Assembly: GCA_018969615.1 (NCBI GenBank)
Contig: JAGWYA010000001.1
Location: 1-52,566 of the forward strand
Source of the DNA: Patescibacteria group bacterium
Lineage (GTDB): Bacteria > Patescibacteriota > Minisyncoccia > UBA6257 > 02-FULL-45-10c
Reading direction: 5' to 3'
Length of the DNA: 52,566 nucleotides
The first letter of the stretch is position 1; each line of letters opens with the position of its first letter. The notes beneath the pieces are model-generated. The model made no database searches. It saw only the letters and a list, made by a program, of their open reading frames with translations, and was not told the DNA's origin. The translations under genes were made by a program, and so were the position numbers. Of this stretch, positions 7,604-38,970 are shown in pieces.

Positions 7604-7606
7604 GGG

Positions 7607-7677
7607 AGCGGAATACCGGAATCGAACCGGCACCTCAACCTTGGGAAGGTTGCGTACTACCACTATACTAATTCCGC
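7607..7677 (-). tRNA. tRNA-Gly(CCC)
   Basis: GCGGAAT acceptor, CAACC-TTCCCAA-GGTTG anticodon arm, CCGG-TTCGATT-CCGG T arm; CCA not encoded. Confidence 0.95.
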
Positions 7678-7687
7678 ATTATTGATC

Positions 7688-7777
7688 ACCTTGGGAACCT
7701 GCCTGCTCGCCTCGCTGGCGCTTTGGCGAAGCGGGCCGGCAGGCAGGGGTCGCATACTACCACTGTACTATACCCGC
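7688..7777 (-). pseudogene. 5' half of a second tRNA-Gly(CCC) allele interrupted by a 50-bp palindromic element
   Basis: Removing 7698-7747 leaves 40 nt that match the 5' part of the adjacent tRNA at 34/40; no T arm follows. Confidence 0.85.
7698..7747. mobile_element. REP/MITE-like palindromic insertion
   Basis: 9-bp terminal inverted repeats CCTGCCTGC/GCAGGCAGG with internal hairpins. Confidence 0.7.
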
Positions 7778-15946: not shown

Positions 15947-16652
15947 AAATATCATCGTTTTCGACCATGTCGGCAAGGTGTTCGAGCCGGCCGGCGACGT
16001 GGCGCTCCGCGACGTCAGTTTTTCCGTGCGGCAAGGGGAGTTAGTGTCGCTGATCGGCGGCTCCGGCTGCGGGAAGTCGACAGTGCTGAAGATCATCGCC
16101 GGGCTCACCGAACCGTCCTCGGGCAGCGTGACGAAACCCGGCAAGGTTTCCATGGTGTTCCAGGCGGGCGCGCTGTTCCCGTGGCTGAGCGTGCTGGATA
16201 ACGTCGCTATCGCGCTGGAGGCGAAGGGCGCGGCGAAGGAGCACGCCCGGAAGGAAAGTTTGAAATATCTCGAAATGGTCCGGCTTGGCGATTTCATCGG
16301 GAAGTTTCCGCGGGAGCTGTCCGGCGGCCAGCGCCAGCGCGTCGGCATCGCCCGGGCGTTGAGCGTTGATCCGGAAGTGCTGCTCCTCGACGAGCCGTTT
16401 GCCGCGCTGGATCAGAAGACCGTCGACGAAATGCACCAGGACCTGCTGCGGATCTGGAAGGAAACCGGGACGACTATTATTCTGGTGTCGCATCTGATCG
16501 CCGAAGCGGTTGCGCTGTCGGAGCGGGTACTGCTGATGAAAGCCGGGGTGATCGCGGGGGAATTTCCGATCACGATCCCGCGTCCGCGCCGGGAACAGGG
16601 GGCTGAGTTTTCGGCCGAGGTCATGAAGATTCGCCGGGAGTTCTTTAAATAG
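15921..16652 (+). CDS. NitT/TauT-type ABC transporter ATP-binding protein
   Basis: GGSGCGKST, LFPWLSV, LSGGQRQR, LDEPFAALD. Confidence 0.92.
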   Translation: MPNGTNSIKNIIVFDHVGKVFEPAGDVALRDVSFSVRQGELVSLIGGSGCGKSTVLKIIAGLTEPSSGSVTKPGKVSMVFQAGALFPWLSVLDNVAIALEAKGAAKEHARKESLKYLEMVRLGDFIGKFPRELSGGQRQRVGIARALSVDPEVLLLDEPFAALDQKTVDEMHQDLLRIWKETGTTIILVSHLIAEAVALSERVLLMKAGVIAGEFPITIPRPRREQGAEFSAEVMKIRREFFK

Positions 16653-16718
16653 ACCTTTGCTTTCAAGCCTCGTTTTGCTAGAGTAGGGAAGTATTTCATT
16701 GGGAGATCGTCTAACTTG

Positions 16719-17095
16719 CCCCGCCAAACTGTACGCAGTATGGAATGCTATTTATACATACTTAAAAATGATTGGAATAGGTACTATACTGGTATTACAG
16801 AATTGGCGCCGCAAAAGAGGTTAGTGAAGCATAATAGAGGTGATGTTTTTTCAACAAAATTTGGAAGGCCATGGCAGATCGTCTATGTTGAGAAACATGT
16901 TGATATGGCATCTGCGCGCAAGCGCGAGAAGCAGATCAAAAGTTGGCATGGCGGAGAAACTTTAAAAAGATTTCTAGGCAAAGCTGCGGGATCGTCTAAT
17001 GGTAGGACATCGGCCTTTGGAGCCGAGTATCTTGGTTCGAATCCAAGTCCCGCAGCTTTGCCCGGAAAGAAAGGATCTAAGTTTGGCGGGGTGAA
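16719..17095 (+). mobile_element. ~377-bp insertion in the tRNA-Gln D-loop bounded by inverted repeats
   Basis: CCCCGCCAAACT (16719-16730) / AGTTTGGCGGGG (17080-17091); exact ends uncertain by ~3 nt. Confidence 0.8.
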
Positions 17096-17099
17096 GTAG
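16740..17099 (+). CDS. GIY-YIG nuclease family protein (119 aa)
   Basis: YLYIL..YYTG, R..KHN, W.IVYVE, A.KREKQIKSW; ATG 16740. Confidence 0.9.
   Translation: MECYLYILKNDWNRYYTGITELAPQKRLVKHNRGDVFSTKFGRPWQIVYVEKHVDMASARKREKQIKSWHGGETLKRFLGKAAGSSNGRTSAFGAEYLGSNPSPAALPGKKGSKFGGVK
16985..17055 (+). tRNA. Intact tRNA-Gln(TTG) nested in the insertion and in the GIY-YIG reading frame
   Basis: TGCGGGA/TCCCGCA acceptor with G73, GTCT-AATGGTA-GGAC D arm, TCGGC-CTTTGGA-GCCGA, CTTGG-TTCGAAT-CCAAG. Confidence 0.93.
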
Positions 17100-17200
17100 G
17101 ACAGCGGCCTTTGAAGCCGTCAATCATGGTTCGAATCCATGTCTCCCTAGCAAATTTGAAGTAGTTTCGAACGTCGAAGAGCTTCTAAAAATTACTTATT

Positions 17201-17878
17201 ATGGGAAAATATTCGGTTGATGACTTAAAAAAGATGATTCCAGGAGTGTCAGAAGAAAAATTTCTTGTAGTTATTTCAAAAGGAGTTTTAAAACTGAACG
17301 ACGAAGAAATAAATACTATAACTTTTGTTTTCTTTCTTTGTTTATTAGCAGAGCTTAATATGGGCGCAGTTCTAACTGAGCCCTGGAAGCAGATAGAAAA
17401 TATTTCTTCTTTTGAAAAAGTAAAAGAAGCAAAAAAGTTATTAAACGAATTTATAACTGATAAAAAATTTACTGAACCACCATTAGACGAAGTTCTTAAG
17501 GGTTTACCAAATGAAATTGCATCAAAAATTCGCGCAGTTGTTATCGACCGCTATCGAGATAAGTCAATACTTGATATGGATAATCTAAATACATTTGGTG
17601 ATAAAATACTAGCGTATCAAGCTATTAAATCAAAAAATAATGTTACAAAAATTCTTTGGATATTAAAAGGAATGCGAGATGATATAAGTCATGGCAGAAT
17701 TATGGAATTAAAATACGAAGGTCAATTGCTTGTTAATAGAAAAGTAAAAGAGAAGCTCCTTATTGATTACATGGAAGCTTTTAGTAATCCAGACCATACC
17801 AAGTCTAATTTAAGCAGTCATTTACAGTTTACAGAAGAGGAACATAGAGAGATACAAAGATTGCTTGGGATGTTATAG
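17201..17878 (+). CDS. AT-rich hypothetical protein with HEPN-like RxxxxH motif
   Basis: Helical protein, TFGDKI...MRDDISHG; markedly more AT-rich than its neighbours. Confidence 0.7.
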   Translation: MGKYSVDDLKKMIPGVSEEKFLVVISKGVLKLNDEEINTITFVFFLCLLAELNMGAVLTEPWKQIENISSFEKVKEAKKLLNEFITDKKFTEPPLDEVLKGLPNEIASKIRAVVIDRYRDKSILDMDNLNTFGDKILAYQAIKSKNNVTKILWILKGMRDDISHGRIMELKYEGQLLVNRKVKEKLLIDYMEAFSNPDHTKSNLSSHLQFTEEEHREIQRLLGML

Positions 17879-18026
17879 ATTTTTAATCTCAAGTTATAGT
17901 CTTATTATAAGTCGACCGAGGTAACTCGATCAGGTGGGGCAAGTTTGAATTAGTATGGTACCGGCAGATTTTTATTCAATAGAAAATAGTTGTATAATTA
18001 TAGTAAATATTATCTTTATAAAATTT

Positions 18027-18479
18027 ATGACAACAATTCTTTTGGTGGGTATCGCGGGGGCGGTCATTAGTGCGATTACCGGAACGCTTTGGTATTCGAA
18101 CGCAACTCCTATGGGGAGGTGGCATATGCAATACCTTGGTTTTGACCGATTATCGAATGAAGAGAAGGAAAAAATGATCGCCGACGCAAAGCCGAGGATG
18201 TGGAAAAGCTATTCCGCGCAAATGCTCCTTTCGTTTCTCACTTCCTTTTTTATCGCGTTCGTGACGAGCTATACCGTTCAGAACGGCGGACCGGCGAGCG
18301 CTGTCTTTTTTTATGTTCCGATGATCTGGATCGCGTTTACGGTGCCGGTGATCGGACAGAATATCCTGTGGGGGAGATCTAAGGGAAGCCTTGCATGGAA
18401 AAGATTCATCTCCGAAAGTTCCTACAACTTGATCACGTTTCTTATCATCGCTTCCGTAGCGGCTGCGGTGATCAAATAG
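18027..18479 (+). CDS. DUF1761-like 4-TM membrane protein
   Basis: GTLWYS...G.W motif and 4 TM helices; start revised to 18027. Confidence 0.7.
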   Translation: MTTILLVGIAGAVISAITGTLWYSNATPMGRWHMQYLGFDRLSNEEKEKMIADAKPRMWKSYSAQMLLSFLTSFFIAFVTSYTVQNGGPASAVFFYVPMIWIAFTVPVIGQNILWGRSKGSLAWKRFISESSYNLITFLIIASVAAAVIK

Positions 18480-18553
18480 AGGTTTTTTAGATCCGATACT
18501 CAGTGTGATATTAATTTGGGACGAAAGTTATCCGAGAAGGACGATTTTTACAT

Positions 18554-20582: not shown

Positions 20583-20627
20583 GTTAGCACTCCGGTCCCA
20601 TGACGGACGTTGTAAGGATATGATACG

Positions 20628-21212
20628 ATGTTATTTATGGATGCACTTATTTTCGATAAAACAAAGACGGCATTAGTGGTGATCGATCTCCAGAAAGGGA
20701 TCGTGAACCGGAATGTCGGGCCGCATACCTCGGCTGAGGTGGTAAAGAATGCGGCGTCGCTCGCCGACGTATTCCGGAAGAATGCCATGCCGGTGTTTTT
20801 GGTTCGTGTCACGCCTTCGTTTGACCGGAAAGATGCGTTGCATCCTGATGCGGACGCGCCGATGCCGGCGCATATGCCTCCGGCGGATTGGGCGGAGATC
20901 GTTCCCGAGATGGGACCGAAGGAAGGCGACTTTATCATCACCAAGCGTCAGTGGGGTGCATTTTATGGGACCGAGCTGGATCTCCAGATGCGCCGGCGCG
21001 GGATCACGACGATCGTGCTGTGCGGGATCTCGACGAACATCGGCGTTGAAAGCACGGCGCGAGCGGCGTACGAGCTTGGGTATCATCAGGTCTTCGCCGA
21101 AGATGCGACCGCGGCGTTATCCGCCGAAGAGCATTCTTTCACCATGGCGCATATCTTTCCGCGCATGGGCAAAGTTCGTTCCACGGCGGATATTCTAACG
21201 GCCATTCACTAA
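20628..21212 (+). CDS. Isochorismatase/cysteine hydrolase family protein
   Basis: ALVVIDLQKG, KRQWGAFYGT, GISTNIGVESTAR. Confidence 0.9.
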   Translation: MLFMDALIFDKTKTALVVIDLQKGIVNRNVGPHTSAEVVKNAASLADVFRKNAMPVFLVRVTPSFDRKDALHPDADAPMPAHMPPADWAEIVPEMGPKEGDFIITKRQWGAFYGTELDLQMRRRGITTIVLCGISTNIGVESTARAAYELGYHQVFAEDATAALSAEEHSFTMAHIFPRMGKVRSTADILTAIH

Positions 21213-22365: not shown

Positions 22366-23646
22366 TTAGGCCTTGTTGATCACGACCTTCTCGACCGTGA
22401 ATACTTCGCCCAGGTTATAGCGGCTTGAAAAGCTGACGTCCTTGCTGTTGATGAAGTACGGATCGCGCATGATATACCCGTTCGCGTCGCGGCCGGTCAG
22501 GACGATAAAGTGCGTTCCGCCGAAGACGTTCAGGCCGAGGATCACCGGATTGCCGGTTGCAAGCGTTGCATTAATGGTCGCGCCGACCCGGGATGCGGTG
22601 ACGCCGTCCACATTGATGGTATAGAGAAGATAGGCCGGATAATAGGATGCGAAATTGTTCGGATCGGCATCGATCGTCGCCGGCGTGACATCCCGGTAGC
22701 CGTAATGGGTCATGACCATCGCCATTGAGGTGACCAGGCACCCGGCGTCGGCAAGCGTATATTTTGTTCCGTTGAGCGATTGATCGCCCCACGCCGCATC
22801 GCGCTGATTGTAGTAGCATCCCCATGAATCGCAATTCGTTTGGTCGAGGAGAAGGCCTTTCGCGCCGGCGTTGGCGGCGAATGCAGAAAAGCTCGCGAGC
22901 TGCGCTTTTGCCTCAGAGAGGAGGGCTTGGTATTTTGATTCCTGACTGTTCGTTTGGACTAAGAGCTGGTCTTTGGCGCTTTTATTTGCGACGAGGTCGG
23001 CCTGCTGATTGATCAGGGCCTGTTTTTGATAGGAGAGCGTTGCCTGTTTTTGTTTGCTTGCCGTCTGGGAGTCCGCAAGCTGCGTGCCGAGGTTTTGCAG
23101 GGTCTGTACTTTGTTTTGGATCGCCCCCTGGATCTTGATCAATGCGTCGATGTTATTCCATGCGTCGGAAAGCGACCCCGAGATAAGGAGCTGTTCAAGC
23201 GGGGATTGCTCATCAGCTTTTTGAAGGCTGCGGATATAAACGGCGAGCGCCTGCTGATCGGTCTCGATCGTTTGCTGGGTGTCGGCGATGTCGGCGCTGT
23301 ATTGCTGGATCTGAATACTGGTGATATTGATCTGGCTTTGCGTGATGGAGATCTGAGCCTGTACCTTATTGCGCTGGATCGTCAGTGCGTTGATCGCATC
23401 CTGAAGCGTTTTTTTATCGGCGCCGATCTTGGTCAGCTGCGTTTCGTAATCGGCGATCTGCTGGTTCAGGGCCTGGACCTTCGCCGTATTCGCATCAAGC
23501 TGGCTTTGAAGCGTTGTGGTGCTCGTCGTGCTATCGGCATGAGCCTGCGGCACCTGCGGCCAGGGGGCTATACCGATGACGCCCGTGAGAATGCCGGCAA
23601 GAAGGAGCGTTATCCCGTGTTTATGCCGTTTTTGCATGCGATCCAT
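22366..23646 (-). CDS. Secreted coiled-coil protein with C-terminal C39-like peptidase domain
   Basis: Signal peptide, long coiled coil, YYNQRD..W, GCLVTSMAM, HFIVL, DP. Confidence 0.8.
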   Translation of the reverse strand: MDRMQKRHKHGITLLLAGILTGVIGIAPWPQVPQAHADSTTSTTTLQSQLDANTAKVQALNQQIADYETQLTKIGADKKTLQDAINALTIQRNKVQAQISITQSQINITSIQIQQYSADIADTQQTIETDQQALAVYIRSLQKADEQSPLEQLLISGSLSDAWNNIDALIKIQGAIQNKVQTLQNLGTQLADSQTASKQKQATLSYQKQALINQQADLVANKSAKDQLLVQTNSQESKYQALLSEAKAQLASFSAFAANAGAKGLLLDQTNCDSWGCYYNQRDAAWGDQSLNGTKYTLADAGCLVTSMAMVMTHYGYRDVTPATIDADPNNFASYYPAYLLYTINVDGVTASRVGATINATLATGNPVILGLNVFGGTHFIVLTGRDANGYIMRDPYFINSKDVSFSSRYNLGEVFTVEKVVINKA

Positions 23647-30065: not shown

Positions 30066-30186
30066 CGCAGTGGCGGGCTGAGGCCTTTGTCTTTAGTATA
30101 GGTTCTTTAAAAATTTCGCTCAATGCTTCGGTGAGGAAAGAGAAGGGGTCACGACGCTCCTGTCATTAAATGGTATATTGAATTAT

Positions 30187-33100
30187 ATGGCAGCATCAGA
30201 CCCCGATCACATCATAGCTCCGCACACGCCGGAGCATCTGGGTAAAGAGCTCGCCGCGTCCGTGAAGCTTTCGTTCAATGAGCGGCAGGCCGCCGCCTTC
30301 ATGAAAAAGACGCGGGAGACGTTCGTTCGGACCCGGAAGGTCTATCGCAGCTTGGCGCGCAATATCGACGCACGGACCCAGTATAATCAGGGATTGGAGG
30401 TCCTTTTGGATAATTTTTATATCGTTGACGCCGCGATCACCCAGCTTGCGTCGCGGTGGAAGGAGAAAGAATCGTTGCGCGTTCCGCAGATCGTGGATGC
30501 GGACGGGAAAACGCAGCTTCGCGTCTATATGATCGCGCGCGCGCTAGTGAAGCAGACCAACGGCGCGGTCGGACGGGAAGCGATCCTTTCTTTCTTGAAG
30601 GCGTATCAGCGGACCGCTCCGCTTTCGATCCGGGAGCTGGACATCTTTCCGGACATGCTCCGTTTCGCCCTGACCGAATCGATCGCGCGCTTTATTGAGA
30701 CGAACCTCGCCACGCTGCAGGAAATGAAGGAGGCGGATCGCTGGTATGACCAGATCGTAAAGGCTGGCCGCCGCAAGAACGCCTTTGTGCATCTCAAGAA
30801 GATCACCTCGCGGCTTGCGGCGCAGTACAGTATCATCCCGCAGTCATTCGGTCTGCATTTACTGCATCGGCTTTCTCAGACGGGAAAGGAGGGCGGCATC
30901 CGTATCGTTAGCAAGTGGCTGAAGCTCTCCATTTCCAAGCACGGCGTCAGCCATGCACAGCTTGCGAGCATGAATTCGCGTACGGAGCGGGAACAGATGG
31001 CGATCATCGCCAGTGCGATCTCAAGCCTGCGGTACTTGGGGCAGGTGCGCTGGGACCGGGTTTCGCTCGAATTGAACATGATCGACGCGGTTCTTGCCAA
31101 GGACCCTGCCGGCGCATTTTTGCCGCTGACGGAGGAGACTCGTTCGTTCTACCGGCGGACGATCGTCAGGATCGCCGACCGGACCGGAACCCATGATATT
31201 GAAGTTGCGCGCGAAGCGGTGCGCCTTGCCCGGCATGCCGCGGATACGGTAGCGGGGAACAGCCCTCGGACCGGGCATGTCGGCTATTATCTCATTGATA
31301 CCGGCATCGCCGATCTTGAGGCCGCGCTTTCTTATGAGCCCACTCCGCTGGAACGCCTCAGAGCTTTTATTCTGCGGCATGGAACCCGTGTTTATTTCAG
31401 CTTCATCGGCATCGCGATGCTTTTTTCGTTAGGGGCTCTTTTGGAGGCAAGCGATACGCTCCGGCTTTCTCCCGCTCCTTTTATTGCGATGCTCATCGCG
31501 GGCCTTTTGCTTTCATCCGAGGTCGCGACGGCGCTTGCGCACTTTATTTTCACTCGTGTTTTGAAACCGCGGCCGCTTCCGGCGCTTGATCTTCGCAGGG
31601 GAGTGGGCGAGGAGCGCCGCACGATCGTGGTGGTTCCGTCGATGTTTCGGGGCGGCGGGTTCGCAGAGAAGATAACCCGTCGGCTGGAAACGAACTTTAT
31701 CGGAAATAACGATCCGAATATCTTTTATGCGCTGCTGATGGATTTTCGCGATGCCGATTCGGCTGACATGCCGGATGATGAGGATCGCGTCCGGGAGCTG
31801 GAAGAAGAGATCGCGGCGCTGAATAAACGGTATCCATCGGTTCCGCAGCGATTCTCTCTTTTTTACCGTTCCCGTAAATGGAACGCCGCTGAAGGATGTT
31901 TTATGGGGTGGGAGCGCAAGCGGGGTAAGCTCCGCGAGTTCAATGCGCTGTTGCGGGGGAAGACAACGACCTATAGCGGTGATGCCGCTGCGCGCGCCCG
32001 GGCATACGGGAATGTCCCGTATATCCTTACGCTTGATGAGGATACCGAACTGGTCCGTGATTCCGGAAAGATGCTGATCGGCACGATCGATCATCCGCTG
32101 AACCGTCCGGTCATTGATCCGGTGCGCGCGGTGGTGACGGAGGGATACGGTATCGTCCAGCCGCGTTCAGCGCTGCGGTTCCGCGACGGGAACGCTTCGG
32201 TCTTTTCGAGGCTTTTCGGAAATTTCCCCGGCGTGGATACTTATTCGTTGCTTATCTCCGATCTCCATCAAGATCTGTTCGGCGAAGGGATCTTCCACGG
32301 AAAAGGAGTGTATAACATTGATGCGATCGAAGCGACGATGGGAGACCGTATTCCGGAGAACACCGTTCTTTCGCATGATCTTTTAGAAGGATTATATGCG
32401 CGGGTGGGCATTGCAAGCGATGCACGTATCTTCGAGGGGTTTCCGGCGAATTACCGCGAGTATATGCAGCGTTCGCATCGATGGATCAGGGGTGATTGGC
32501 AGATCATCTCGTGGCTTTTCGGTTCCCGAGGGAGCGTATTTTCGCCGATCGGCCGCTATCGGATCTTCGATAATCTTCGCCGGAGCGTGCTTCCGATCGC
32601 GGCGGTAGGCGGGATCATCGGTGCCGCATGGACCGCGGCGTATGTATCGACGTGGAGCATTCTTATTTTTCTTGCCCTGGGATCAGGCCAGCTCATCTCG
32701 TCATTCCTGACCATCACTGAGCGGACGATCAACTGGCAAAGTTCCATGAGCGCTTTCGCCCGTTTTGAATCTATGGTGAGCGGATTCGTCATCGCACTGA
32801 TCAAAACGGCCTTTCTCGGCATTTTTCTTTTGAATTATGCGGTTATCGCATTCGATGCGATCGTCCGCAGTATGTACCGTCTTTTTGTCTCCAAGCGGAG
32901 ACTGCTCGAATGGCAGACCGCTTATGAGGCGCTCGCCCAGCGGAAGAACTCGCTTTTGGGATTCGTGCGGTTCATGTGGCGGAGCCTCTTTTTCACCGCA
33001 GCATTTTTCTTTATTGAAGTGCATGTCAGCGCATTGAGCGATCCGGCAGCGCTTGCATGGGTGGCGGCATGGCTTGCCGCTCCGTTCTTTGCCGTTTTGA

Positions 33101-36100
33101 TCAGCGCAGAGCCGCGGCAGAAAGATCCGCTTTCAAAGCGTGAACGCCTTTATCTGCGGAAGATCGCGGCACGGACCCATTGGTTCTTTACCGATCTGGT
33201 GACGGAGCAGGACCATTGGCTTGTTCCGGACCATCTCCAGGAGGATCCTCCGAGCAAGCAGCATTCTCACGGCCCCGGCATGTCGCCGACCAATCTGGGC
33301 ATGTATCTTCTCGGCATGTCCTGCGGCCGCGAGCTTGGATTTCTGTCGCTGGAGGAGTATCGCGATCGAATCGAACGGGCGTTCACAAGCCTGGAAAAGC
33401 TCGAGCTGTATCGCGGACATTTCTTTAACTGGTATGAATTGAAGGAACTGACCCCGCTGGCGCCCAAATATGTATCATCGGTCGACAGCGCAAACCTCGC
33501 CCTGTCCCTTCTGTCAGTGCATGCCGCTTTAAAGAGCAGTACTGCGGCTCCGGTCATCGATACGGAAACCTTCGAGGGGTTCCGCGCGCAGCTGATGGTC
33601 TTGCGGGATGGATGCGATACGGCATTGGCGGGGCCATTGGACCGGAACGAGCGCCCCCTGATCGAAGAGATCAAGGCGGCGAGCGGGGAATCCCTTTCAT
33701 TGATCGGCAGGGCTTTTACCGAGGAGATCACGCCGCGCGGAAGCGATTTTATTTGGAGCGGAGTCGTGCATCGCTCCATTCAAATTCGGAATGCGCTTGA
33801 GACCTTGCGTCTTGAGGGGAAAAGCGAACGTTTTGAAGAGATATTCCTTGCGGTGCGCCATATGGAGGTCATTGCGGTCGCGCACCGCGATACCCTAGCG
33901 CATTATGTGGGATATGCGATGGTTCCCGTCGTTTCTTCGGTGGTCAGCAACAGCCGTTTGCATTCTTTGTATCTGAAACTGGCGGCATTCTTACAGAAGG
34001 TTCCGACGATCGATGCCCTGACCGACGGGCGCGTGCGGCGTGAGATCGAAGCGCTTGGCATGGATGAAGCGATCGCGCTTTCCGAACTTCCCCCTCCGGA
34101 GAAGGAACATGCGCGGGCATGGTATGCCGAAGTTCTGGAGCGCTTAGCTCTTGCCGAGCATAATGCCCGGGAGACCGCATACTCTCTTCATACGTCTGCG
34201 GAGAAGGCCGCTGCTTACGCGTACCGGATGGATTTTCGCTTCCTATATAACAAGGAGCGCGGATTGTTCCACATCGGATATAACCATACGACCGGCCGGC
34301 TCGACGAAGCGTTCTATGACCTCTTTGCCTCTGAGGCGAATTCGGCAAGCATCGTCAGTATCGCGAAAAACGATGTTTCGGAAAAACATTGGGGGTATCT
34401 GGGAAGAACGGTTGTAAAGAGCAGCGCCGGCGAAGCGGTGGTCGCCTCATGGGCAGGATCGCTTTTTGAATACCTGGGGACGCTGATCTATTTCGACGTC
34501 CCGGCCGAAAGCTTCTGGGGGACCTCGGCGCGGCATGCGATCGCCGCCCATCAATGGTTCGCGCGACGATACCGTATTCCATGGGGAATGGGCGAATCCG
34601 CATCCTCCCGCCAAGACGCCGAGCAGAATTACCATTATCAGGCATTTGGAGAGCCCTCGCTCGGATATAAGCGGGACCTTTCCGAATCGATCGTGGTTGC
34701 GCCGTATACCAGCGCGCTCGCCCTTTCGTTCGTTCCGCGCGCCGCGCTGATGAATTTCAAGCACCTGGAGCGCGCGGGCGGGTTTGGAAGATACGGATTT
34801 TATGACGCGATCGATTTTACGTTCGCGGAGCATCCCGCGAACCGGGAAGGAGGCGGCCGCCCTGCGCGGGTTTATTATGCGCATCATCAGGGCTTTATCC
34901 TTTCGTCGATCACGAACGTCCTTCGCGATAATTGGGTGCGGAAAATGATAGCCCGGGACCCAAGCATGGATGTCGCTTCGCAGTTATTTGAAGAAAAAAT
35001 GCCGGAGAATATTCCGTTGGAACGCATCAGCGTTGTCGTGCCGCGCGTGACCAAAACCGCGGAGGCGCCGCCGGTCGTTGAAGCGCGTCGCCAGTATCTT
35101 CCTTGGCACACGAAGGAAACCGCGTCGATCTTTATTTCTTCCGATAAGTATCGGTCCCGGATCACGTCTGCCGGCGCGGGGGAGAGCTGTTTTGATGACG
35201 TCTATATTACCCGGCCATCCCGCGATATGCTGCGCGAATCGACCGGAACGTTCTTTTATCTGTATGACAAGGCTAAGAACCGGATCTGGTCGCCGACGTT
35301 CATGCCGACGAAAGATCCCGGCGAGAAACTCTCGGTTTCGGCGGGGGAGCAGCTTATGGTATTTGACCGCCATGCCGATCCGGTTACGTCGTCGCTTGTG
35401 GCGACTCCGCTCCCTCGTGAGAATGGCGAACTGCGTGAACTGACCGTTCTGAACACAGGCGATTCCGACCGGACGCTGACATTCGGGGTTTGCGCGGAGC
35501 TTTCGCTGTCCCGGATCTCTGACGGTGCGGCGAACGAGAACTATGAGCGCCTTTTTGTATCGACTGAAACACAGTGGGACGGTCAGGCGATCATCGCTTC
35601 GCGGCCTGACCCGCATGATCGAAGCCGCACGATCGTCGCCGGATTTCTTCTGGCGAGCGATGCGAAAATTTCCGATCTCCGTACGATCCGCGAGAAGGAG
35701 GTATTCTATGGTTCGCCCCGCCGCATTGCCGCGCCTCCGGTGCTTGCCGATCTGAGCCGCGCCGATCACGCATTCCCTGTACATACGCTCGACAGCGTTG
35801 CCGCATTCGCCGGAAGCGTCCGTTTGCGCCCGCATGAGTCCCGCCGCATTACGCTGGTGTCCGCCGCAGGATACTCAAAGGAGCAGGTTCTTGCGACCCT
35901 GCGGCGATACCGTGACCAAAAGAGCATCCGAAGAGTCATTGAAAATGCCGATCAGGAAGGTTCGCGCTTCTTATCTGACCTCGGGATCGTTTCACAGCAG
36001 GGGTCGGTCTATGGAACGCTTGCGTCGCTCGCGATCGCACGCATGCTGCATAACCGCGATCTGTCGCCCGCAGGGAAGCCGACGCGGCCTTGGGTCTCTC

Positions 36101-38970
36101 CGTTATGGAAAATGGGCATTTCGGGAGTGCGCCCGATCATCCTGCTCTCGGTGGGCGGGGTGACCGATCTTCCTATGGTCCGTCAGCTGCTGGGATGCCA
36201 TGCGTATTTTGCGAAAAAAGGCATCCCGGTCGATATCGTGATCTTCAATACGCATGCGGGCGGCTATTTGAAAACATTTGAAGACGAGATCGAATTTCTT
36301 TTGAACGCGCAGACGCCGCCCGATCCGGCGACCGCAACGAGCAAGGTCTATCATGCCCGTGCCGAACAGCTTCGCGAAGATGAACGCACTGCGCTATTAA
36401 GCGCGGCGGCGATCCGCATCGATGCGAAAAAAGGATTTTTGACCGATGTGGTCGCTCAATTGCAGCGGGAGCACAACAAGGCGATCCCGCCTCAGCGCTT
36501 TGAGCCGCAGCGGGTTTCTTCGGGGAGCGTCTACGAGCCGATCATGCGCACTGATGTTTCAGCGCTTCAGTCGTTCAATGGGATCGGCGGTTATGATCCA
36601 AAGACCCGTGAATATGTGATCGAGCATACCCGCAAAGTACGCCCTCCACGCCCGTGGTCCAATATCATTTCGAATGACCGGATCGGGTTCATCGCGACCG
36701 ATCGCGGCATGTCATTTACCTGGGCGCGGAACAGCCACGACAATAAACTGACCGTTGCTTATAATGATCCGCTTTCCGAATCAAGCGCTGAAGCCTTTTA
36801 TGTGCGCGATGATGCATCGGGAGCATCGGCAAGCCTTACGCCGCTGTTCGGCCCTTCGAATGCGGAATACGAGGTGCGTTTCGGTGAGCAGACCTGCGCC
36901 TATCGGACGAGAGCGCTGGGGATCGATATGGAATTGACGATGTATCTTGATCCGGCCGAGGCCGTGAAATATTATCGCATCGCTTTCACGAATACCGGCG
37001 GCGTTGAAAAGCGCTTGTCCGTGTTCGGATATTTCGAGCTTTTATTGGGAAGTATGCCGAATGAAACGAAGAAACTTTTCTCGCTGACGGCGCATGCCGG
37101 AAAATCGATCGCCGCCGTCCAGAACTATCGCCATACATTCCTTGAAAGCCGGGCGGTTGCCGGAATTGTCGGCGGAGCCGATGTGATCAGCGGCAGCAGG
37201 GAGGAGTTCTTGGGCCGGTTCGGTGACGGGAGCGCCCCCGCTGCGTTAGCGAAAGCAACTCTGAGCGATGCGATCGATACCGGCGATGAGGCTGCCGCCT
37301 CATTCCAAAAGAAGCTCGTGATCCCGGCGGGCGGATCGGCGGTTACTACATTCTTCCTCGGGGAAACGACCGAACCGAATATCGATCATTTTATCCGTTC
37401 CGTTGCCGATGTTTTCGCAGCGGACCGTGCGCTTCGGGATGTCCGAACCGTTCCGGTTGCCCTGGCGCTTCCGGCGTTCGATCTGCCTGATAAGACATTG
37501 ACGACGCTTATGAACCGTTTTCTGCCGCATCAGACCGTTATGTCGCGTATCCATGCGCGGCTCGGATTCTCTCAGATCGGCGGTGCGTTCGGATTCCGCG
37601 ATCAGTTACAGGATGCGCTGGCGGCGCTTTGGTATGATCCGCAGTGGGCGCGGGAGCATATCCTCGCCTGTGCCGCCCATCAGTTCAGGGAGGGCGATGT
37701 CTTATCGTGGTGGATGCCGTATAACAATTTTGGAGCCCGTACGCTTCTGTCCGATCCGCAGTTGTGGCTTCCGTATGTGGCCCTGTCCTATGTCTCGTTT
37801 ACCGGCGACCAGGCGATCCTTGATGAGGTCGTTCCGTATTTGGTCGGCGAGATCCCCGACTGGGAAGAAAGACCGAGCGTCACGAATGTGTTCGAAATAA
37901 GTTCTGAAAAAAGTTCGCTCTATGAGCATCTGATCCGCGCGGTTGAACACTCGCTAACCGCCGGTTCCCATGGATTGCCGCTGATGGGAACGGCCGATTG
38001 GAATGACTCCATGAATCGGGTAGGCAGCGAAGGCGCCGGTGAAAGCGTCTGGCTTGCATGGCTTACTGTCGCCGTATTGGATACCATGAGCAAAGTAACC
38101 GACGAACGAAAGGATCCCGACCGCGCTGCCCGATACCGGTCCCACGCTGAACAGTATCGCGCTGCGCTCGAGCAGGCGGGATGGGATGGCCGCTGGTACC
38201 GGCGTGCTTTTACCGATACCGGCGCGCTGGTCGGCAGCAATGGTTCGCGGGCATTCCGCCTTGATTCGATCGCGCAATCATGGGCGTATTTCACGAACGG
38301 AGCTTCCGATAAAACAAAAGAAGCGCTCCGGTCAGCGAAAGAAGTGCTTGGGATCTATGAAGGCCAGGTGCCTTTGGGCTGGCCGCCGTTATCACGAACC
38401 ACGCTTGATCTGGGAACGATCTCCGATTATCCGCCGGGTGTCCGCGAGAATGCATCGCAGTATGATCATGCGGCGTTATGGCTTGCGCAGGCGCTGTTTG
38501 CGGTGGGCGATCCGGACGCCGGAAAACTGATCCTTGATGCGGTGAATCCTTTCCTTCGCAGTGAAACGCGCGAGAAAGCACTGGTCTATCAGGGAGAACC
38601 GTATGCGGTCGCTGCGGAGATCTATTCATCGCCGACCTATCCGGGCAGAGCGGGATGGACCTGGTATACCGCTTCGGCGGGTGCGTTCTATCGGACCGTG
38701 ATCGAGTATCTTTTGGGTATGATGCGAAGCGGCCAGGCGCTCTCATTCTCGCCGTCGTTTCCTTCCGATTGGCGTTCGGCGCATGTCATGCTTCCGTTCG
38801 GATCGGCCCGGTATTCCATCGAGTACTCAGTGGAGGGCGGAAGCGTTTCATCGGTGGAAGTCCATTGTGATAAAGTTCTTTGCTCGGACGGCGTGGTAAC
38901 GCTCGTCGATGATGCACAAGAGCATACGGTTCAGGTGAAGATCACGCACGCCTCGCAGGGAAAGAAGTGA
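30187..38970 (+). CDS. ndvB: Cyclic beta-1,2-glucan synthase (Cgs/NdvB/ChvB; GT84 plus GH94 phosphorylase)
   Basis: GWERKRGKL, SHDLLEG, RWIRGDWQ, SPTNLG, GFRDQLQD, DWND, GVREN, WTWYT; ~2,930 aa with central TM block. Confidence 0.9.
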   Translation: MAASDPDHIIAPHTPEHLGKELAASVKLSFNERQAAAFMKKTRETFVRTRKVYRSLARNIDARTQYNQGLEVLLDNFYIVDAAITQLASRWKEKESLRVPQIVDADGKTQLRVYMIARALVKQTNGAVGREAILSFLKAYQRTAPLSIRELDIFPDMLRFALTESIARFIETNLATLQEMKEADRWYDQIVKAGRRKNAFVHLKKITSRLAAQYSIIPQSFGLHLLHRLSQTGKEGGIRIVSKWLKLSISKHGVSHAQLASMNSRTEREQMAIIASAISSLRYLGQVRWDRVSLELNMIDAVLAKDPAGAFLPLTEETRSFYRRTIVRIADRTGTHDIEVAREAVRLARHAADTVAGNSPRTGHVGYYLIDTGIADLEAALSYEPTPLERLRAFILRHGTRVYFSFIGIAMLFSLGALLEASDTLRLSPAPFIAMLIAGLLLSSEVATALAHFIFTRVLKPRPLPALDLRRGVGEERRTIVVVPSMFRGGGFAEKITRRLETNFIGNNDPNIFYALLMDFRDADSADMPDDEDRVRELEEEIAALNKRYPSVPQRFSLFYRSRKWNAAEGCFMGWERKRGKLREFNALLRGKTTTYSGDAAARARAYGNVPYILTLDEDTELVRDSGKMLIGTIDHPLNRPVIDPVRAVVTEGYGIVQPRSALRFRDGNASVFSRLFGNFPGVDTYSLLISDLHQDLFGEGIFHGKGVYNIDAIEATMGDRIPENTVLSHDLLEGLYARVGIASDARIFEGFPANYREYMQRSHRWIRGDWQIISWLFGSRGSVFSPIGRYRIFDNLRRSVLPIAAVGGIIGAAWTAAYVSTWSILIFLALGSGQLISSFLTITERTINWQSSMSAFARFESMVSGFVIALIKTAFLGIFLLNYAVIAFDAIVRSMYRLFVSKRRLLEWQTAYEALAQRKNSLLGFVRFMWRSLFFTAAFFFIEVHVSALSDPAALAWVAAWLAAPFFAVLISAEPRQKDPLSKRERLYLRKIAARTHWFFTDLVTEQDHWLVPDHLQEDPPSKQHSHGPGMSPTNLGMYLLGMSCGRELGFLSLEEYRDRIERAFTSLEKLELYRGHFFNWYELKELTPLAPKYVSSVDSANLALSLLSVHAALKSSTAAPVIDTETFEGFRAQLMVLRDGCDTALAGPLDRNERPLIEEIKAASGESLSLIGRAFTEEITPRGSDFIWSGVVHRSIQIRNALETLRLEGKSERFEEIFLAVRHMEVIAVAHRDTLAHYVGYAMVPVVSSVVSNSRLHSLYLKLAAFLQKVPTIDALTDGRVRREIEALGMDEAIALSELPPPEKEHARAWYAEVLERLALAEHNARETAYSLHTSAEKAAAYAYRMDFRFLYNKERGLFHIGYNHTTGRLDEAFYDLFASEANSASIVSIAKNDVSEKHWGYLGRTVVKSSAGEAVVASWAGSLFEYLGTLIYFDVPAESFWGTSARHAIAAHQWFARRYRIPWGMGESASSRQDAEQNYHYQAFGEPSLGYKRDLSESIVVAPYTSALALSFVPRAALMNFKHLERAGGFGRYGFYDAIDFTFAEHPANREGGGRPARVYYAHHQGFILSSITNVLRDNWVRKMIARDPSMDVASQLFEEKMPENIPLERISVVVPRVTKTAEAPPVVEARRQYLPWHTKETASIFISSDKYRSRITSAGAGESCFDDVYITRPSRDMLRESTGTFFYLYDKAKNRIWSPTFMPTKDPGEKLSVSAGEQLMVFDRHADPVTSSLVATPLPRENGELRELTVLNTGDSDRTLTFGVCAELSLSRISDGAANENYERLFVSTETQWDGQAIIASRPDPHDRSRTIVAGFLLASDAKISDLRTIREKEVFYGSPRRIAAPPVLADLSRADHAFPVHTLDSVAAFAGSVRLRPHESRRITLVSAAGYSKEQVLATLRRYRDQKSIRRVIENADQEGSRFLSDLGIVSQQGSVYGTLASLAIARMLHNRDLSPAGKPTRPWVSPLWKMGISGVRPIILLSVGGVTDLPMVRQLLGCHAYFAKKGIPVDIVIFNTHAGGYLKTFEDEIEFLLNAQTPPDPATATSKVYHARAEQLREDERTALLSAAAIRIDAKKGFLTDVVAQLQREHNKAIPPQRFEPQRVSSGSVYEPIMRTDVSALQSFNGIGGYDPKTREYVIEHTRKVRPPRPWSNIISNDRIGFIATDRGMSFTWARNSHDNKLTVAYNDPLSESSAEAFYVRDDASGASASLTPLFGPSNAEYEVRFGEQTCAYRTRALGIDMELTMYLDPAEAVKYYRIAFTNTGGVEKRLSVFGYFELLLGSMPNETKKLFSLTAHAGKSIAAVQNYRHTFLESRAVAGIVGGADVISGSREEFLGRFGDGSAPAALAKATLSDAIDTGDEAAASFQKKLVIPAGGSAVTTFFLGETTEPNIDHFIRSVADVFAADRALRDVRTVPVALALPAFDLPDKTLTTLMNRFLPHQTVMSRIHARLGFSQIGGAFGFRDQLQDALAALWYDPQWAREHILACAAHQFREGDVLSWWMPYNNFGARTLLSDPQLWLPYVALSYVSFTGDQAILDEVVPYLVGEIPDWEERPSVTNVFEISSEKSSLYEHLIRAVEHSLTAGSHGLPLMGTADWNDSMNRVGSEGAGESVWLAWLTVAVLDTMSKVTDERKDPDRAARYRSHAEQYRAALEQAGWDGRWYRRAFTDTGALVGSNGSRAFRLDSIAQSWAYFTNGASDKTKEALRSAKEVLGIYEGQVPLGWPPLSRTTLDLGTISDYPPGVRENASQYDHAALWLAQALFAVGDPDAGKLILDAVNPFLRSETREKALVYQGEPYAVAAEIYSSPTYPGRAGWTWYTASAGAFYRTVIEYLLGMMRSGQALSFSPSFPSDWRSAHVMLPFGSARYSIEYSVEGGSVSSVEVHCDKVLCSDGVVTLVDDAQEHTVQVKITHASQGKK

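Follow-up and report, generated by a model that had tools for sequence, protein, structure and literature searches.

How can a bacterium with a single gene for a transfer RNA (tRNA) tolerate an insertion in that gene? The question is raised by positions 16700 to 17149 of a stretch of 52,566 nucleotides (the window), which comprises the first 52,566 bases of contig C4 of a Patescibacteria genome (G000, the source genome; 807 kb in 14 contigs, approximately 54% G+C, completeness 96.6%). The records of its relatives are titled as members of the Patescibacteria, or candidate phyla radiation (CPR), group. These bacteria have tiny genomes and single-copy tRNA genes, and an element that breaks one of them should be lethal. 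Two routes by which inserted elements spare their hosts are known, namely self-splicing (introns and inteins) and restoration of the end of the disrupted gene (integrative islands and organellar homing genes). At this locus a tRNA-Gln(UUG) gene is interrupted by 381 bp that contain an open reading frame (ORF) for a GIY-YIG nuclease and a second, complete tRNA-Gln(UUG) gene. Sequence comparison indicates that the insert is probably one copy of a family of selfish, homing-type cassettes which reside in Patescibacteria tRNA genes and carry a replacement tRNA. Such a cassette would spare its host by a third route, supplying a whole tRNA, with a processing stem of its own, in place of the lost one.

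Organization of the nested tRNA-Gln locus

The coordinates of the locus are collected in Table 1. The inner tRNA had been recognized as complete in a preliminary description of the window, and both ARAGORN and Rfam agreed. It is the sole tRNA-Gln(UUG) gene that ARAGORN detects in the 807-kb source genome, where 47 tRNA genes were called, among them Gln(ttg) once and Gln(ctg) once. The outer gene is divided. Its 5' part is 87% identical to positions 1-15 of the inner tRNA, and bases 2-7 of this part pair with 17141-17146 to form the acceptor stem (read by eye). Its 3' part is 85% identical to the inner tRNA over 48 nt, and 17088-17149 alone matched RF00005 (36 bits, E 2.2e-5) without a D arm. 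The outer gene agrees with a standalone tRNA-Gln(ttg) gene of genome G025 at 64/70 positions. The top of its acceptor stem is irregular, with U1 opposite U72 or an extra T ahead of A72. When the outer halves were rejoined at 16718/17096, ARAGORN called a tRNA-Gln(ttg); it did so at nearly every neighbouring junction tried as well, and the test is weak because the program is permissive about the junction.

An interruption of the D-loop by approximately 377 bp, beginning after 16718, had been proposed at the outset. The interruption stands, and its limits were corrected to 16715-17095 by comparison with the uninterrupted allele described below. The insert takes the place of TG in the D-loop (about positions 17-18), and apart from the ORF and the tRNA it has about 60 nt of sequence. 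Its 12-bp inverted repeats are perfect, as originally described, and the pairing can be lengthened by ACTT (16714-16717) and AAGT (17094-17097). Within the insert, the helix of leader and trailer strands lengthens the inner acceptor stem to 21 bp (21 nt at 90%), and the leader strand is also the coding sequence for the C-terminus of the nuclease. The ORF starts with ATG at 16740 and has no stop codon of its own; the frame stays open through the inner tRNA to TAG at 17097-17099, and the read-through form has 119 residues, its tail being encoded by the tRNA.

Table 1. Features of the nested tRNA-Gln(UUG) locus, in window coordinates
Feature	Position	Strand	Remarks
Outer (resident) tRNA-Gln(UUG), 5' part	16700-16714	+	Acceptor 5' strand, D-stem 5' strand and first two D-loop bases
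Left junction motif CTTG, first 4 nt of insert	16715-16718	+	
Left arm of terminal inverted repeat, begins CCCCGCC	16719-16730	+	Perfect 12-bp complement of 17080-17091
GIY-YIG ORF core, 81 codons	16740-16984	+	Pfam PF01541, E 9e-13
Leader strand, last 14 nt of ORF core	16971-16984	+	Pairs with trailer
Inner (carried) complete tRNA-Gln(UUG)	16985-17055	+	RF00005, 64.8 bits; ARAGORN tRNA-Gln(ttg) 16985-17056
Trailer strand	17055-17068	+	Pairs with leader; first base is the inner tRNA discriminator
Right arm of terminal inverted repeat, ends GGCGGGG	17080-17091	+	
Right junction motif TGAA, last 4 nt of insert	17092-17095	+	Conserved 3' of the right arm
Outer tRNA-Gln(UUG), 3' part	17096-17149	+	Rest of D arm, anticodon arm (TTG), T arm, acceptor 3' strand

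Recurrence of the nested form

The right-junction pattern was searched in 401 genomes of the order and then in 185,579 species genomes. A nested tRNA-Gln with a GIY-YIG ORF and the same junction motifs was found in 18 genomes, namely G000, G019, G035, G025, G130, G347, G098 and 11 further public records (L098, L109, L113, L115, L123, L139, L143, L146, L157, L159 and L164). Their record titles include Zambryski-, Curtiss-, Wildermuth-, Kerfeld- and Saccharibacteria, Minisyncoccia and Parcubacteria. Whether homologues of the nuclease lie in split tRNA genes, between arms and beside an inner cognate tRNA, had been suggested as a check, and in these 18 genomes it is so; the three closest homologues (79, 56 and 56% identity) all occupy a nested tRNA-Gln of exactly this structure. 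The wide scan returned 80 loci, about 44 of which were chance matches in high-G+C genomes without a nearby tRNA.

The left junction is informative, as the flank containing CTTG lay outside the search pattern used to collect the loci. CTTG precedes the left arm in 16 of the 17 correctly paired rows, and CCTTG does so in L087; the arms of L062, L098, L115 and L157 were taken from a separate comparison of nested rows. CTTG also precedes the arm in nested forms of tRNA-Ile, tRNA-Thr and tRNA-Phe. TGAA was part of the search pattern, so its conservation among the fetched loci partly reflects the way in which they were chosen. The arms measure 12-19 bp in relatives, with a near-invariant proximal CCCCGCC/GGCGGGG and a covarying distal part. 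The leader/trailer helix (13-18 bp, 0-2 mismatches) is present in all 17 nested rows that have both tRNA-Gln and the GIY-YIG ORF, and its sequence varies between rows and covaries.

Simpler forms were also recovered. The CTTG-arm...arm-TGAA junction surrounds a cognate tRNA, with no ORF, in genes for tRNA-Gln (L071), tRNA-Ile (L080/L128, L161), tRNA-Thr (L112) and tRNA-Phe (L125), and in these the arm helix continues straight into the inner acceptor stem. Bare mini-hairpins with the same junctions lie in the D-loops or anticodon loops of tRNA gene remnants. An intact cognate tRNA adjoins every disrupted gene of the ORF-less or bare-hairpin type that was found. All that is left at two loci (L082 and L083) is the end of the ORF, the inner tRNA with the right arm, and the 3' half of the outer gene, which is intact; L076 has a nuclease pseudogene. 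A 310-kb contig labelled uncultured Gammaproteobacteria (L168) has a full tRNA-Gln preceded by a 5' fragment of tRNA-Gln that bears a CTTG...TGAA mini-hairpin; this record may be mislabelled, or else the element is not confined to Patescibacteria.

The uninterrupted allele

A related genome with an empty site, also suggested as a check, was found in a pair of genomes of one genus (G017 and G019) whose flanking genes have 78-89% DNA identity. At the syntenic site G017 has a single intact tRNA-Gln(ttg) and G019 has the nested form. Apart from its inserts, the outer gene of G019 is exactly the G017 gene, including the 5' part equivalent to 16700-16714, and TG stands in G017 in place of each CTTG...TGAA. 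The second insert of G019 is a 28-nt hairpin with the same feet in the anticodon loop. The pair thus displays a presence/absence polymorphism at one conserved site, which the insert splits, and the identity of the two genes makes the outer gene the resident and the inserts the additions. The replacement of TG by CTTG...TGAA can be read as TG on each side plus 2 extra nt on each side, with no clean target-site duplication.

Probable working copy and origin of the inner tRNA

The condition of the outer genes was tallied over 19 nested rows, one of which is a duplicate and another an ORF-less locus. After removal of the insert, five outer genes, that of the window among them, were normal tRNA-Gln genes; one had the anticodon TTA, nine had extra hairpins in the anticodon or T loops, and four were truncated or degraded. 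All 19 inner tRNAs were called normal by ARAGORN. The window's inner tRNA matches the tRNA-Gln genes of five other genomes at 69-70 of 72 positions, and its outer tRNA matches those same genes at 55-59 of 70. The outer genes thus appear to behave as abandoned copies and the inner tRNAs as working ones; the inner gene is taken to be the working copy because it is the sole tRNA-Gln(UUG) called in the source genome and because the outer genes decay. The row with TTA is L164, labelled Kerfeldbacteria, in which the outer tRNA-Gln without its insert is intact but has TTA in place of TTG as its anticodon; this copy may be decaying, or it could be a tRNA able to read ochre codons.

The two tRNA genes of the window differ, as first reported, by compensatory pair changes, which were located in the acceptor, anticodon and T stems; several such differences point to different origins for the inner and outer genes. 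Among the nucleases, the sister pairs L001/L002 and L098/L164 have a common inner acceptor stem and different outer stems, a pattern that favours carriage of the inner tRNA with the nuclease.

It may be instead that nothing is carried, and that the nested form is an in-situ duplication. A free-standing nuclease gene situated just 5' of tRNA genes would then cause breaks whose repair duplicates segments of the resident tRNA locally, as with phage SegB. We regard this as unlikely for the family, although the inner and outer anticodon and T arms are identical in G019, G035 and G025. The identity is attributed here to later gene conversion between copies approximately 40 nt apart, and for these three loci in-situ duplication is a live rival. 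At L025 a direct repeat of approximately 70 nt, including 45 nt of non-tRNA flank, lies on both sides of the ORF and looks to have arisen in place, and amplification of tRNA segments driven by SegB is documented (PMC13096335). Duplication in place accords poorly with the several compensatory stem pairs that separate inner from outer tRNA in the window and in L071, and with the sister nucleases just mentioned. Moreover, the arms and CTTG/TGAA are the same in tRNA-Gln, tRNA-Ile, tRNA-Thr and tRNA-Phe hosts of distant lineages, and this constancy argues against an origin by random repair.

The GIY-YIG protein and its family

The nuclease assignment made in the preliminary description was confirmed with Pfam PF01541 (48.8 bits, cut-off 22.6; residues 3-71 of 81). 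The catalytic domain of GIY-YIG enzymes is characterized by two tyrosine motifs, an arginine and a glutamate, and the motif columns Y, Y.GI, R, HN.G, E and K.W are invariant in 15 members of the clade. The sequences indicate that the nuclease is under purifying selection within the nested clade. Comparison with NCBIfam, PHROGs and PADLOC gave no family match, and the closest solved chain by sequence is 1ywl_A, a UPF0213 protein (weak, E 0.025).

With the window protein as query, GIY-YIG homologues were detected in 53 of 61 related genomes (0.5-1.3 Mb), with up to 9 matches per genome. Ninety loci were fetched from the 61 genomes and 83 were confirmed by tblastn. A tRNA gene on the same strand lies within 250 nt downstream at 26 of the 83 loci and upstream at 12, with 13 isotypes represented; at one locus the tRNA is on the opposite strand, and 44 have none. 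By our rough estimate, based on 47 tRNAs in 807 kb, a tRNA neighbour would be expected by chance at about 2%. At many loci a 13-34-nt copy of the tRNA 5' part, often with GC-rich hairpins inside, precedes the ORF, and at others a copy of the tRNA 3' part follows it. The nucleases cluster by isotype and orientation, and the nested-Gln clade (15 rows) has an SH-aLRT support of 99. The tree has 18 changes of isotype label, and none of 200 shuffles gave fewer than 22, a comparison which is descriptive only, as relatives share labels.

The source genome itself has two more GIY-YIG paralogues, on contig C14 at 20592-20813 (-) and 22886-23126 (+), and each immediately precedes a tRNA gene that is read in the same direction. 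In one case the ORF extends into a tRNA-Cys and stops within its D-loop. In the other case the neighbour is a tRNA-Ser(GCU), and ahead of the ORF stands a 16-nt copy of the first bases of this tRNA, interrupted by a 20-bp palindrome.

Proposed mechanism and points against it

One of two explanations offered in the preliminary description was a minimal selfish element carrying a whole cognate tRNA. It is supported by the recurrence of the structure, the G017 allele and the decay of the outer genes, and further by the compensatory differences, the inner stems shared by sister nucleases and the association of the nuclease family with tRNA genes. The covarying arms and leader/trailer helix, with the stable predicted fold given below, indicate structure under selection and count in its favour too, as do the invariant motif residues of the nuclease. 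The cassette, in order, would consist of CTTG, a GC-rich arm, the 81-codon nuclease gene, a cognate tRNA on the leader/trailer helix, a spacer, the other arm and TGAA. On taking the place of the D-loop TG it would disable the resident tRNA-Gln, and the carried tRNA-Gln would take over. The nuclease would make or provoke a break in cassette-free tRNA genes, and the cassette would be copied in during repair through homology with both halves of the tRNA gene (homing). Since the cell has one copy of the broken gene and cannot do without it, only cassettes with a working tRNA would persist. The duplicated parts of the tRNA could then recombine to yield a 5' fragment followed by nuclease and full tRNA, ORF-less nested tRNAs, or precise loss of the insert, and such recombination would account for the derived forms found elsewhere.

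The whole locus would be transcribed from the promoter of the outer gene. The arms, together with the leader/trailer/acceptor helix of 21 bp or more, would fold the transcript, and RNase III and RNase P would release the inner tRNA. We infer that the long helix is a processing stem for this release, and the activity and target of the nuclease, homing and RNA processing are likewise inferred.

Several points weigh against this explanation. The protein is a bare 81-residue catalytic domain, and a recognizable DNA-binding module is absent (the Pfam domain covers 3-71, and there was no other family match); in known GIY-YIG homing enzymes such as I-TevI and the Seg proteins, it is the DNA-binding module that gives specificity for a long site. 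The D arm of the inner tRNA is the same as the presumed target, and in 7 of 17 elements the acceptor 5' strand is the same too, so that a nuclease aimed at the D-loop should cut its own cargo. The G017 state may be ancestral, or it may be a revertant produced by two deletions between direct tRNA repeats. No empty-site counterpart was found for the window's own locus: the tRNA-Gln loci of 30 relatives lack synteny with the window, and only G002, of the same genus, has a related ABC ATPase (44% identity), with no tRNA after it. Identities between genomes were 79, 56, 62 and 56% for the nuclease and 68, 59, 58 and 49% for a housekeeping protein; the nuclease therefore roughly tracks host relatedness, and horizontal transfer is not demonstrated. 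Finally, cargo-free forms share the junctions, and for this reason the hairpin, not the nuclease, may define the mobile unit.

Carried to its conclusion, the last point would make the hairpin a unit resembling a miniature inverted-repeat transposable element (MITE), with CTTG/TGAA feet and a preference for TG, moved by another enzyme and having the nuclease and tRNA as passengers. We hold this to be quite improbable. Mini-hairpins with the same feet and no cargo do occur in the D- and anticodon loops of tRNA remnants, both feet being present in 16 of 42 distinct CCCCGC...GCGGGG hairpins of the collected loci; these counts are biased, since the loci were collected via the right-hand motif. The ORF-less nested tRNAs (L071, L080/L128, L112, L125 and L161) would also suit such a unit, as would the other palindrome families that pepper tRNA remnants. 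Set against them are the purifying selection on the nuclease in the nested clade and the lack of a transposase candidate near the element.

Explanations at the RNA level

The other explanation in the preliminary description was a D-loop intron removed via its terminal stem. Its stems do covary, and it is not favoured here, in view of the damage to many outer genes and because splicing enzymes were not found in the source genome. In general form, the insert would be a stem-closed intervening sequence in a functional outer tRNA, with the ORF and the inner tRNA as intron cargo; in a variant, RNase III, RNase P and RNase Z would cut without religation, and the arm helix would hold the outer halves together as a two-piece tRNA. 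This too appears very unlikely, although several observations suit it. Both the arms and the leader/trailer helix covary. A predicted fold of the 461-nt transcript has a free energy of -165.4 kcal/mol (z = -6.78; 0/100 shuffles as good) and keeps the outer acceptor, anticodon and T arms, with the insert closed by the arm helix. In five of the 19 outer genes nothing but the insert disrupts the tRNA; hairpins of the CTTG type have so far been found in loops at TG, another palindrome family occurring in stems also; and RNase III is encoded in the source genome.

More of the evidence points away from a functional outer tRNA. Most outer genes have further damage or truncation, that of the window is irregular at 1:72, and the disrupted gene is always accompanied by an intact cognate tRNA. 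In L082 and L083 the outer 3' half is intact despite the loss of the 5' half, so that intactness of the outer gene is no proof of its use. Tests for a splicing apparatus were negative. No match to tRNA-splicing endonuclease or RtcB (PF01974 and PF01139) was obtained in the 96.6%-complete source genome; control searches with the two families were positive in 4 and 10 reference genomes. A group I core was not found in an Rfam scan of 16000-18000 at E up to 10, which returned two tRNA matches and noise. At the junction an unpaired G on the 5' side and TG on the 3' side face each other between ACTT/AAGT and the arm helix; a bulge-helix-bulge, with two 3-nt bulges 4 bp apart, is absent by eye. Finally, 953 GC-rich hairpins of the source genome were deleted in silico with 25 flank variants each, and no tRNA spanning a junction was called.

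An enrichment of G-U pairs was considered as a sign of pairing in RNA and set aside: by our own reasoning, transition bias by itself would produce nearly the ratio that was counted, 19 G-U pairs to 27 mismatches.

The nested gene could also be a working RNA device, in which RNase III, RNase P and 3' processing release the inner tRNA and the outer halves function as an arm-bridged split tRNA-Gln or are rejoined. This is highly improbable. If true, it would be the first stem-bridged split tRNA, or the first non-ribozyme tRNA intervening sequence, in Bacteria, and processing at the 5' end of the inner tRNA would strip the nuclease mRNA of its stop codon and throttle the nuclease.

Soundness of the assembly

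Contigs of the Logan collection were aligned to the locus. In run X1 two contigs without differences span 16329-17053 and 17029-17584, and in run X3 two such contigs span 16669-17009 and 17027-17388, so that each junction is bridged by difference-free contigs in two samples, of which X1 may be the source sample. An artefactual joining of reads from two tRNA-Gln genes is accordingly a negligible prospect: tRNA genes are repeats in metagenomes, the Logan contigs end within the inner tRNA (17029-17053) and the relative L003 has an N gap at the corresponding place, but the bridged junctions and the independent assembly of the identical architecture in 18 genomes dispose of the misassembly that had been named as a possible refutation. 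An insert-free join of the outer halves was not present among the Logan contigs, which drop rare variants. A further contig (X3/X4, 16325-16686) has 17 differences in 362 nt, and its fit to the window ends at 16686, just before the outer tRNA; the strain from which it comes may have a different state of the nested locus.

Relation to known systems

The closest known system is SegB of phages T4 and T6, together with other free-standing genes for GIY-YIG homing endonucleases in tRNA gene clusters; these nuclease genes are likewise lodged among or beside tRNA genes. The T4 enzyme cleaves inside a tRNA gene belonging to a related phage and has a DNA-binding part. SegB is a phage protein, whereas the cassette lies in a cellular genome and encodes a bare 81-residue domain with no PHROG match; unlike SegB, it is situated inside a tRNA gene, bounded by inverted repeats and fused to a complete replacement tRNA. 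Homologues of SegB co-localize with the tRNA genes of phages, where they drive the duplication of segments that contain a full tRNA gene (PMC13096335).

Integrative elements that target tRNA genes are similar in that they insert into such a gene and keep its function by means of duplicated tRNA sequence. They use a tyrosine or serine integrase, usually enter the 3' part of the gene and restore the displaced fragment only. The cassette differs in its D-loop site, its supply of a whole tRNA, its size below 400 bp and its lack of an integrase. No integrase or transposase was found in the ORFs between 13253 and 22353, which upholds for the neighbourhood what had been said of the insert. An integrase-mediated element was rejected on these grounds and because the duplication is nested and not a repeat of the 3' end. 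Terminal inverted repeats, a feature of transposons and MITEs, are present (12 bp and perfect here, 12-19 bp in relatives).

Group I introns with GIY-YIG ORFs, together with the group I introns of bacterial tRNA genes, are mobile, reside in RNA or protein genes and leave the host gene unharmed. The cassette would resemble them in combining mobility, a GIY-YIG gene and a spared host; it has no ribozyme, and harm would be avoided by replacement and not by splicing. A self-splicing group I or group II intron was rejected, there being no ribozyme core in the covariance scan of 16000-18000.

Archaeal tRNA introns and split or tri-split tRNAs are comparable in that loops, including the D-loop, are interrupted, and complementary flanks unite the halves. 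The archaeal cases need a bulge-helix-bulge, a splicing endonuclease and a ligase, none of which was found at the locus or in the source genome; here, moreover, the hosts are bacteria and each disrupted gene has an intact copy. An archaeal-type spliced intron was accordingly rejected (no bulge-helix-bulge by eye; PF01974 and PF01139 unmatched in the source genome). Some archaeal tRNA introns transpose between tRNAs (PMC10714607).

The intervening sequences of bacterial rRNA and the insertions of CPR rRNA genes are likewise bounded by stems, located in structural RNA genes and in some cases provided with ORFs. The stem of an rRNA intervening sequence is cut by RNase III. Insertions of this type leave a working, sometimes fragmented, rRNA, whereas the host tRNA of the cassette looks abandoned and the insert carries a substitute. 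Many insertions in CPR rRNA genes, some encoding homing endonucleases, have been described (PMC11270868, PMC10714607).

The UPF0213/YhbQ proteins share with the nuclease a length of approximately 80-100 residues and the possession of a GIY-YIG domain only, the match to 1ywl_A being weak. We know of no tie between this family and tRNA genes, and a literature search for one found nothing. Full-text literature searches, outside most subscription journals and supplements, found no description of nested tRNA genes in CPR bacteria, nor of GIY-YIG genes tied to tRNA genes in them. The cassette would be a variation on a known type, a homing-type element that spares its host by carrying a whole replacement tRNA.

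At less than 400 bp and with an 81-residue nuclease, the cassette would be among the smallest candidate autonomous mobile elements. The bare GIY-YIG domain raises the question of how the target is found, and the compact enzyme would be worth characterizing if it is specific for a structure or for tRNA genes. The cassette family would also account for odd features of CPR annotation, such as isolated fragments of tRNA genes, GIY-YIG ORFs continuing into a tRNA, and hairpins rich in G+C within AT-rich genomes. By implication, tRNA genes in these lineages may be replaced by copies that move horizontally or within the genome, a turnover that would bear on tRNA-based phylogeny and on studies of tRNA identity.

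Other features of the window and the source genome

A scan of 16400-17400 for promoters and terminators gave two promoter-like sites, within shuffle expectation, and nothing else useful. An AT-rich stretch (17150-18500) lies directly 3' of the outer tRNA; the G+C fraction is 0.34 in 17001-18000, compared with about 0.54 elsewhere. It contains a 225-aa ORF without a Pfam family and a DUF1761 protein, and neither an integrase nor a flanking repeat of the tRNA end was found in it when both were looked for. Sixteen nucleotides at 17933-17948 are 88% complementary to the left junction (16710-16725); this inverted look-alike, 1.2 kb downstream, may be the relic of a second element or a chance match.

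Partial tRNA copies occur elsewhere. Upstream of the tRNA-Gly(CCC) gene at 7605-7677 lies a 5' fragment of a different tRNA-Gly allele (7690-7776, minus strand), extending from the acceptor to the anticodon arm. The fragment is split by the inverted repeat CCTGCCTGCC...GCAGGCAGG with a 31-nt loop, and the complete tRNA-Gly follows about 20 nt later, giving the same scar of fragment and full cognate tRNA without a nuclease gene. The palindrome CCTGCCTGCC/GGCAGGCAGG has about 20 copies in the source genome, mostly within approximately 100 nt of tRNA genes (7698-7747 in the window), and is also found within tRNA fragments of other genomes (L004, L011 and L170). Nineteen of the 47 tRNAs have a partial copy of themselves within 450 nt, four of these being cross-hits between neighbouring tRNAs. 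Nine of the 47 (on C1, C4 at 90652, C7, C9, C10, C13 and C14) are followed by a terminator-like hairpin and then a GC-rich repeat of 140-230 nt, which starts with an inverted T-arm-like stretch and matches no Rfam family; after the repeat comes an exact copy of the last 16-19 nt of the tRNA.

Three hairpins make up the intergenic repeats at C4:82488-82600, C4:163990-164115 (-) and C2:78245 (-), namely a long one, one of the form CCCCGC(C)...(G)GCGGGG and one of the form TGAAG...CTTCA that has a run of T. There are 5 copies of the 11-mer GCGGGGTGAAG in the source genome, against about 0.4 expected by our own estimate. An 18-mer with 2 mismatches to the search pattern, AGCGGAGTGAAGTAGGAC, which occurs as inverted pairs in four genomes, was considered and rejected, because it forms the terminus of a different inverted repeat, over 180 nt in length. 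These longer repeats (L066/L086 in G339, and in G304, G364 and G316) are unrelated to tRNAs and flank segments of 1.7-3.9 kb, the segment in G339 having a 356-aa low-complexity ORF. In the window itself, the ORF list includes a single ORF of 2,930 codons at 30178-38970 (+), which is very large for an 807-kb genome.

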